64,000 nucleotides of DNA, taken from the NCBI RefSeq assembly GCF_000027125.1, contig NC_017626.1. One strand, written 5' to 3'. Below the pieces are notes generated by a model. The model did no database searches and had not been told where the DNA came from. It saw nothing but the letters and a program-made list of their open reading frames with translations. Origin of the DNA: Escherichia coli 042. Lineage in GTDB: Bacteria > Pseudomonadota > Gammaproteobacteria > Enterobacterales > Enterobacteriaceae. Positions 52,885 through 54,425 of the stretch are shown piece by piece. Made by a program: the position numbers and the translations under genes. How positions within the stretch are numbered: position 1 is the first letter of the stretch; every line of letters begins with the position of its first letter.

Positions 52885-52932
52885 TACGAGCATATAAGCA
52901 TGATAATGGGCGGTTGGCCTGATAAGGCGTTT

Positions 52933-53687
<755 letters not shown>

Positions 53688-53791
53688 ATCAGCATACTTG
53701 TCCTTAGCCTTCTGCAGTGACAGCTGGTAGTACAGCGTGCTTCTGGCCAGCCCTGCAGCCTTTAACAGGTCAGACTGGCAGTGTCCGCACC

Positions 53792-54322
53792 TCAGGCTCC
53801 GGATGACTTTCGTTTTTTCTCCAGCTCCTGGCGCTTTTTTTCCAGGAGATGCTCCTGCATGGCTTTCAGATATGCATTTTCTGCGCGAAGATAACGCAGC
53901 TCATTCTTCATCTCTTCCGGCGTCATGTTTGCCTCGTTTTCATGGGTATCATCAGAACGGGTCATGCTTTTCTCCTTCCTGCGCCTGATAAAGGCCTCAT
54001 TACCAGATTTGCGGTAGCCTTTTATCCAGTTTTTAACCGTGTTGTGGCTGGGAATGTTAAACCGGGCAGCTACCCGGGGTAGAGACTCAGAATGCCCGAG
54101 AGCATAAAGAACCACGCAAAGTTTATCTTCAGGAGAATAGCTACGCTTGTGTCTGCAATCCAGTGCCCGAGGACCGTGAAGAAGAAAAAGATTAATCCAG
54201 TGTGAGAGGCTGGTGTGAGAAAGTTGAAAGAGTTTTGCCGTAGAAATGATGCCTGCATGACCAGCCAGGTAATGATTTACAGCGGCAAGTTTTACTTCAA
54301 ATGAATGTTTCATAAACTGCAC
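53792..54322 (-). CDS. IS3-family transposase OrfA (HTH DNA-binding subunit)
   Basis: 176 aa with a leucine-zipper-like C-terminus; slippery A AAA AAG near the 3' end for a -1 frameshift into orfB. Confidence 0.85.
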   Translation of the reverse strand: MQFMKHSFEVKLAAVNHYLAGHAGIISTAKLFQLSHTSLSHWINLFLLHGPRALDCRHKRSYSPEDKLCVVLYALGHSESLPRVAARFNIPSHNTVKNWIKGYRKSGNEAFIRRRKEKSMTRSDDTHENEANMTPEEMKNELRYLRAENAYLKAMQEHLLEKKRQELEKKRKSSGA

Positions 54323-54364
54323 CTTCAGATGTCAGATTATGTCCAACATTTGGGGTGCAGTTCA

Positions 54365-54425
54365 GTTTACGCCGCATCAGGCTGCCAGCACCGATTGCCG
54401 GATGCGACGTAAACGCATCCGGCGC
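54365..54425. repeat. REP palindromic units flanking (and split by) the IS
   Basis: GTTTACGCCGCATCAGGC pairs with GCCTGATAAGGCGTTT on the other side of the IS; a second unit GCCGGATGCGACGTAAACGCATCCGGC follows. Confidence 0.8.

Follow-up and report, generated by a model that had tools for sequence, protein, structure and literature searches.

The sequence A AAA AAG at 53840..53834 on the minus strand, near the end of orfA in a complete copy of IS1397, is very probably the place where some ribosomes pass from orfA into orfB. We put at about 0.9 the probability that two tRNA-Lys slip there in tandem by one base in the -1 direction, giving OrfA and OrfAB, with the help of SD-like pairing and a hairpin. 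The copy lies in a stretch of 64,000 nucleotides from contig NC_017626.1 of Escherichia coli 042 (the window in what follows, meaning the whole of the DNA analysed). The -1 frameshift site of IS1397 is already known and publicly annotated; for this copy, the occurrence and efficiency of slippage and its stimulation by the SD-like element and the hairpin are what we infer from the sequence.

The element occupies 52933..54364 (minus strand, 1432 bp) and is 99.9% identical in nucleotides to E. coli copies annotated as IS1397, over all 1432 bp. PGAP labels near-identical copies 'IS3-like element IS1397 family transposase' and joins them from two pieces, noting 'programmed frameshift'. By the ISfinder convention, elements are the same IS above ~95% amino acid or ~90% nucleotide identity; here the nucleotide identity to PGAP-named IS1397 is accompanied by an exact match between the predicted fusion protein and an NCBI IS1397 family transposase. 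The ends are terminal inverted repeats of 25 nt, the left one at 54340..54364 (minus strand; 5'-TGAACTGCACCCCAAATGTTGGACA on the IS strand) and the right one at 52933..52957 (minus strand; IS strand end ...CAGTTCA-3'). These repeats are imperfect (84% complementary over 25 nt, TGAACTG.../...CAGTTCA), and the element starts with TG and ends with CA. Along with TG/CA inverted repeats and a 3-4 bp duplication, the copy has the other traits of the IS3 family, namely an orfB that overlaps orfA in the -1 frame, and HTH domains followed by a DDE core. The family assignment made in the original prediction is therefore correct, and the element, which belongs to the IS150 group, is on its sequence an intact IS1397 that is probably mobile.

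Nothing within the element distinguishes it from IS1397 itself: its 449-aa fusion protein does not differ, it is inserted at the centre of a REP/PU palindrome and the duplication is of 4 bp. Compared with other IS1397 copies, its sole peculiarity is its insertion site in the rluC-yceF spacer. Of 5426 complete E. coli genomes, 3496 match the query, and in 1707 of these one copy covers 80% of it or more. One IS1397 copy, in E. coli strain SCPM-O-B-8794 (L034:1482-2430), has suffered an internal deletion that joins ...MKNEL straight to DKYADVKQ... and takes out the entire frameshift window, which leaves orfA in frame with a truncated orfB.

IS1397 is said to have been described in E. coli, together with its REP/PU-specific insertion, by Bachellier et al. 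in 1997 and Clement et al. in 1999. In the window, the element splits a REP/PU palindrome at its centre, leaving the left half GCCTGATAAGGCGTTT at 52917..52932 and the right half GTTTACGCCGCATCAGGC at 54365..54382. This palindrome belongs to a BIME with two PUs in the rluC-yceF spacer, the second PU being at 54397..54423. Comparison of the flanking sequences and reconstruction of the empty site identify the target-site duplication as GTTT, with copies at 52929..52932 and 54365..54368. When the IS and one GTTT were deleted in silico and the result was compared with complete E. coli genomes, the reconstructed rluC-yceF spacer was found uninterrupted in 5419/5426 of them, so the insertion at this site is rare and looks recent or strain-specific. 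REP sequences are reported to be the specific insertion target of IS1397 (PMC1525189), and the target at this locus is of just that type, the middle of a REP/PU palindrome within a BIME. The REP pair adjoining the IS also gives a match to the Rfam family naRNA4 (54370..54424, minus strand) that stays below threshold, at 23.2 bits where the gathering score is 59.5. This weak match fits the REP-derived nature of naRNA4, and no assignment was made.

The first open reading frame, orfA (53792..54313, minus strand), encodes 173 aa from an ATG at 54313 to a TGA at 53794..53792 and carries HTH domains (Pfam HTH_28 at 9e-18, HTH_Tnp_1, HTH_29 and HTH_23). The orfB frame (52965..53900, minus strand), -1 relative to orfA, is open from 53900 to 52968 and ends in a stop at 52967..52965; its Pfam matches are HTH_21, rve (the DDE integrase core, 1.3e-21), rve_2 and rve_3. 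Codons begin at positions with a remainder of 1 modulo 3 in orfA and of 2 in orfB, and the two frames overlap by 106 nt. The earliest ATG, GTG or TTG of the orfB frame is a GTG at 53687 and the earliest ATG is at 53567. As the original prediction held, the orfB frame is thus already open upstream of its first ATG, and no stop lies between the heptamer and the first methionine of orfB.

That prediction had also placed A AAA AAG on the minus strand near the 3' end of orfA, and it is indeed found there, in phase, within the flagged region 53826..53850 (minus-strand GGAAAAAAAGCGCC at 53843..53830). Across this region and on to the stop, orfA reads ATG CAG GAG CAT CTC CTG GAA AAA AAG CGC CAG GAG CTG GAG AAA AAA CGA AAG TCA TCC GGA GCC TGA. 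Since orfA codons begin at positions with a remainder of 1 modulo 3, the heptamer is divided as GA[A AAA AAG], which is the X XXY YYZ phase. It lies 60 nt into the 106-nt overlap, its end being 39 nt ahead of the orfA stop. AAAAAAG is over-represented in the window (29 copies where shuffles lead one to expect 16.7, with 0/100 shuffles reaching 29), so the motif alone proves nothing, and its support comes from phase, context and conservation. We estimate the chance of an in-phase AAAAAAG among the ~35 in-phase positions of the overlap at <1%, from an observed rate of ~2.3e-4 per position. There is another AAAAAAG within orfB (53038..53032), out of X XXY YYZ phase.

Under tandem slippage, most ribosomes on orfA would read on to the TGA and make OrfA, a DNA-binding HTH protein. 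A minority would pause with tRNA-Lys on AAA in the P site and on AAG in the A site; both tRNAs would slip back by one base onto AAA AAA, and translation would resume at GCG in the orfB frame. The product would be an OrfAB transposase of 449 aa, ...LLEKK-APGAGEKTKV... (the hyphen marks the junction), that combines the HTH region of OrfA with HTH_21 and the DDE/rve core. Pairing of AGGAG with the ribosome's anti-SD during translation would be one stimulus, and a 38-nt hairpin a second. In E. coli, A_AA.A_AA.G is among the most efficient -1 motifs, and A_AA.A_AA.G or A_AA.A_AA.A makes up 72% of the heptamers in elements of the IS1 and IS3 families (PMC4066793). The same paper puts background frameshifting at roughly 0.04-0.07%.

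Two candidate fusion proteins were built, one for a slip at the heptamer and one for a slip at a second run of A's further downstream, the predicted junction peptides being LLEKKAPGAGEK and ELEKKTK respectively, and both proteins were matched against a protein collection. The fusion made at the heptamer, ...MQEHLLEKK-APGAGEKTKVIRSL..., is exactly the NCBI 'IS3-like element IS1397 family transposase' found on 81 contigs, such entries being conceptual translations that show only where public annotation puts the shift. This lends support to the view that the heptamer is the site producing OrfAB, as had been proposed. From the heptamer, the -1 frame stays open into a conserved domain, and the predicted product is collinear with its homologues in a gapless alignment. 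Public IS1397 translations differ at the junction, KK-APG in P0001 and KK-PPG in P0136, with identical DNA at the site (L084:684-860); the PGAP join in P0136 is placed one base further along, which accounts for the difference.

Slippage could in principle be transcriptional, RNA polymerase losing one A of the A7 run at 53841..53835 in some mRNAs, which would then encode OrfAB directly. The run does have seven A's, and many IS clusters may use transcriptional realignment (PMC4066793). Assemblies short of one base in the run exist as well (P0159, P0187), though they resemble sequencing errors, since they lose one A in both A runs, as is typical of homopolymer reads. Most of the relatives described below have A6 followed by G, and 63/66 of them keep the X XXY YYZ phase, which such slippage would not require; GGAG, a stimulator specific to ribosomes, is moreover conserved with a constant spacing of 11 nt. 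Bacteria use runs of ~8-9 or more for programmed transcriptional realignment, a further point against A7, and we regard this explanation as very unlikely. The second A run of the overlap, GAG AAA AAA CGA (53813..53818, minus strand), is out of X XXY YYZ phase, and we judge that it is not the shift site. A shift there (53818..53813) would give ...ELEKK-TKVIRS..., and the run does lie where the -1 frame is open, perfect re-pairing (A AAA) would be possible at its Lys codon in the A site, and a similar out-of-phase run occurs in one relative (L064). However, it offers no in-phase X XXY YYZ heptamer, P-site re-pairing would be from AAA to GAA, no SD-like element stands at the right distance, and the run falls in the loop of the predicted hairpin. 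The fusion built on it was absent from the protein collection, in which no protein on record has that junction. In a common variant subfamily of IS1397, the second run reads A5G while the upstream heptamer is identical, which argues against a shift at this run, and we find such a shift extremely improbable.

Finally, the heptamer could be a coincidence of Lys-Lys coding, with OrfB translated on its own, whether from GTG 53687 or by coupling, and with no functional fusion. The abundance of AAAAAAG in the window and an AAGGA upstream of that GTG would suit this explanation. It must nevertheless contend with the 49 open codons of the orfB frame, none of them a start, that separate the heptamer from the GTG, with a type of signal that is conserved across phyla, and with single-ORF relatives that are collinear with the fusion. 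In IS3, IS911 and IS150, the active transposase is the fused OrfAB, which also counts against an independent OrfB, and we give this explanation hardly any credence.

For tandem slippage on the heptamer, two putative stimulators can be recognized in IS1397. Upstream, the SD-like AGGAG (53852..53856, minus strand) lies 11 nt before the heptamer and 12 nt before its second base. Proven SD-like stimulators have spacings of 6-17 nt (PMC4066793), and AGGAG, being of the GAGG/GGAG/AGGA... type, falls in this range. Downstream, a hairpin of 38 nt is predicted at 53793..53830 (minus strand), starting at +4 from the heptamer, with an energy of -12.4 kcal/mol (0.33 kcal/mol per nt). Its arms are CAGG..CUGGAGA and UC.UCCGG..CCUG, the opening pairs being C-G, A-U, G-C and G-C, and it ranks within the best 2.7% of the 38-nt windows in the IS. 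Hairpins that stimulate frameshifting are expected to span 17-140 nt, to start 4-10 nt after the motif with G-C or C-G and at least 3 further pairs, and to have an unfolding energy of at least 7.6 kcal/mol (PMC4066793). The values of the IS1397 hairpin agree with this rule, yet its z-scores against shuffled sequences are only -1.28 to -1.88 (the latter for a 50-nt segment). The hairpin thus beats shuffles only modestly, and its support is weaker than that of the stem found in the relatives. When 94-111 nt around the site were folded, z-scores were unremarkable, only the delimited hairpin standing out. A scan of Rfam with E-values up to 10 found no frameshift-element family (e.g. IS1222, dnaX) and four weak unrelated matches.

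Because IS1397 copies are nearly identical, covariation cannot lend the hairpin its support. The variant subfamily (98% aa identity; L084, L085) has three differences in this stretch, none of which breaks the hairpin: one turns U.G into a U-A pair, one is in the internal loop and one in the hairpin loop. These substitutions are weakly consistent with the hairpin. On either side of the heptamer (53822..53862, minus strand) are three blocks that can pair with one another, CAGGAG / CUCCUGG / CCAGGAG. A competing hairpin formed by CUCCUGG/CCAGGAG, which encloses the heptamer in its loop, is nearly as stable (-11.0 kcal/mol) as the 38-nt hairpin, and an alternative upstream hairpin of -8.0 kcal/mol, which also competes with the downstream one, would sequester the SD-like element. 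As modelled, AGGAG and the downstream hairpin probably stimulate the slip.

To place the signal of IS1397 among those of related elements, species-representative genomes were scanned once, which gave 80 loci from Bacillota, Pseudomonadota and Bacteroidota with 39-58% aa identity; a search for protein homologues returned near-identical IS1397 proteins only. At 66 of the 80 loci there are two ORFs, orfB being in the -1 frame, and in 63/66 the overlap contains A AAA AAG or A AAA AAA in phase. In two of the three that lack a heptamer, the tetramer A AAG persists in phase at the corresponding place. In L064 and L071 (Pseudomonas endophytica and P. saliphila), only A AAG (CTA AAG GAG) is present at the ancestral site, with the upstream GGAG kept, and this A AAG is possibly a -1 signal of the tetramer type.

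Upstream of the heptamer, 41/56 distinct frameshift windows (counting that of IS1397) have GGAG at exactly 11 nt, and within 30 nt upstream none of the 56 has GGAG at any other spacing. The Glu codon that forms GGAG is GAG in 43/55 cases, compared with 37% GAG in these genes (binomial p = 8e-10, uncorrected for relatedness), a conservation partly confounded by conserved Met-Glu-Asn coding and shared ancestry. Downstream, GCCTTAGTTCA, six nt past the heptamer, pairs with TGAACTAAGGC ~60 nt further on. In a 55-sequence alignment that includes IS150, 91.4% of the cells of this stem are paired and compensatory changes occur in 7/11 pairs; 0/500 shuffles reached the observed values, a slid partner gave at most 48% pairing, and RNAalifold recovered the core 7 pairs independently. 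Six relatives have a single fused ORF, four from Pseudomonas asuensis (L002, L003, L005 and L014) and two from the P. oryzihabitans group (L039 and L043), and these natural fusions read like the -1-frame product after the ancestral heptamer. Together, the heptamer, GGAG, stem and natural fusions clearly point to -1 frameshifting as the expression strategy of the family.

The position of the site in IS1397 differs from that in its relatives. IS150, like every relative with a heptamer that was aligned or inspected, has it at the KK codons of ...ENAYLKK (MYLKK in IS150). At the homologous position, IS1397 has ENAYLKA (CTG AAA GCC), with neither heptamer nor GGAG, and its own heptamer and GGAG (53834..53867, minus strand) are found 9 codons downstream of the ENAYLKK position of IS150 and ~60 relatives. 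In a gapless alignment of the fusions, 18 residues separate ENAY from K(T/A)KVI in IS1397, in the two-ORF relatives and in the natural fusions alike, only the junction being shifted. When read codon for codon, the old 5' arm of the stem in IS1397 (now GAGCATCTCCT) no longer pairs with the position of the old 3' arm. It therefore seems likely, from this alignment, that the signal (GGAG at 11 nt, A AAA AAG and hairpin) was rebuilt in the IS1397 lineage 27 nt downstream of the ancestral site of the IS150 group, in the overlap and with the linker kept. As the heptamer of IS1397 is off the position it has in the relatives, their conservation backs the kind of signal rather than the exact site. We know of no description of this displacement, but surveys of IS3 frameshift signals based on ISfinder may well record it.

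Intermediates with 60-95% identity, such as ISKpn1, were sought to date the move. A tblastn search against plasmids found none between 46% and 95%, and a library of proteins clustered at 50% held only the IS1397 cluster (98%), the next being at 43% or lower, with no intermediate. P0159 and P0187, which at first sight match at 76% and 92%, were rejected as intermediates: their apparent fused ORFs, which read ...LLEKSARSWRKTKVIQ..., come from IS1397 copies short of one A per A run, most likely through homopolymer sequencing errors.

One of the closest known systems is IS150, for which frameshifting at A AAA AAG with a downstream stem-loop has been shown experimentally (Vogele et al. 1991, as cited in PMC4066793). 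IS1397 has 42% aa identity to it and belongs to the same group; both elements have the same heptamer in phase where orfA ends, an orfB in the -1 frame and a downstream stem-loop, predicted in IS1397. The two differ in that the site of IS150 is at ...MYLKK, 9 codons upstream of where IS1397 has it. The stem of IS150 is of the long-range GCCTTAGCTC/GAGCTAAGGC type and starts from +6, whereas IS1397 lacks that pairing and has a shorter local hairpin from +4; conversely, IS1397 has GGAG at -11 and IS150 does not. In the -1 frameshift cassettes of IS911 and dnaX, A AAA AAG is preceded by an SD-like stimulator and followed by a structure (Larsen et al. 1994 and Prere et al. 2011, as cited in PMC4066793). 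IS1397 resembles them in having an SD-like element (10-14 nt upstream in this comparison), A AAA AAG and a predicted downstream hairpin, but the sequences are unrelated and the downstream structure is a three-way junction in IS911 and a simple stem-loop in dnaX.

IS3-family elements are textbook cases of expression by -1 frameshifting at A AAA AAG, which the NCBI pipeline already annotates in IS1397. The heptamer accounts for the ability of this IS1397 copy to produce its transposase, and has little import beyond correct annotation. The more instructive point is an evolutionary one, the displacement of the site. With the junction displaced, OrfAB of IS1397 shares with OrfA 9 more residues, from a C-terminal segment resembling a coiled coil, than the fusions of the relatives do, and if the displacement is real these additional residues could alter the multimerisation of OrfA and OrfAB. 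It would also mean that the overlap must contain a frameshift but need not have it at any particular codon, and that a recoding signal in a dual-coding overlap can apparently move, with its SD spacing preserved and a different hairpin.
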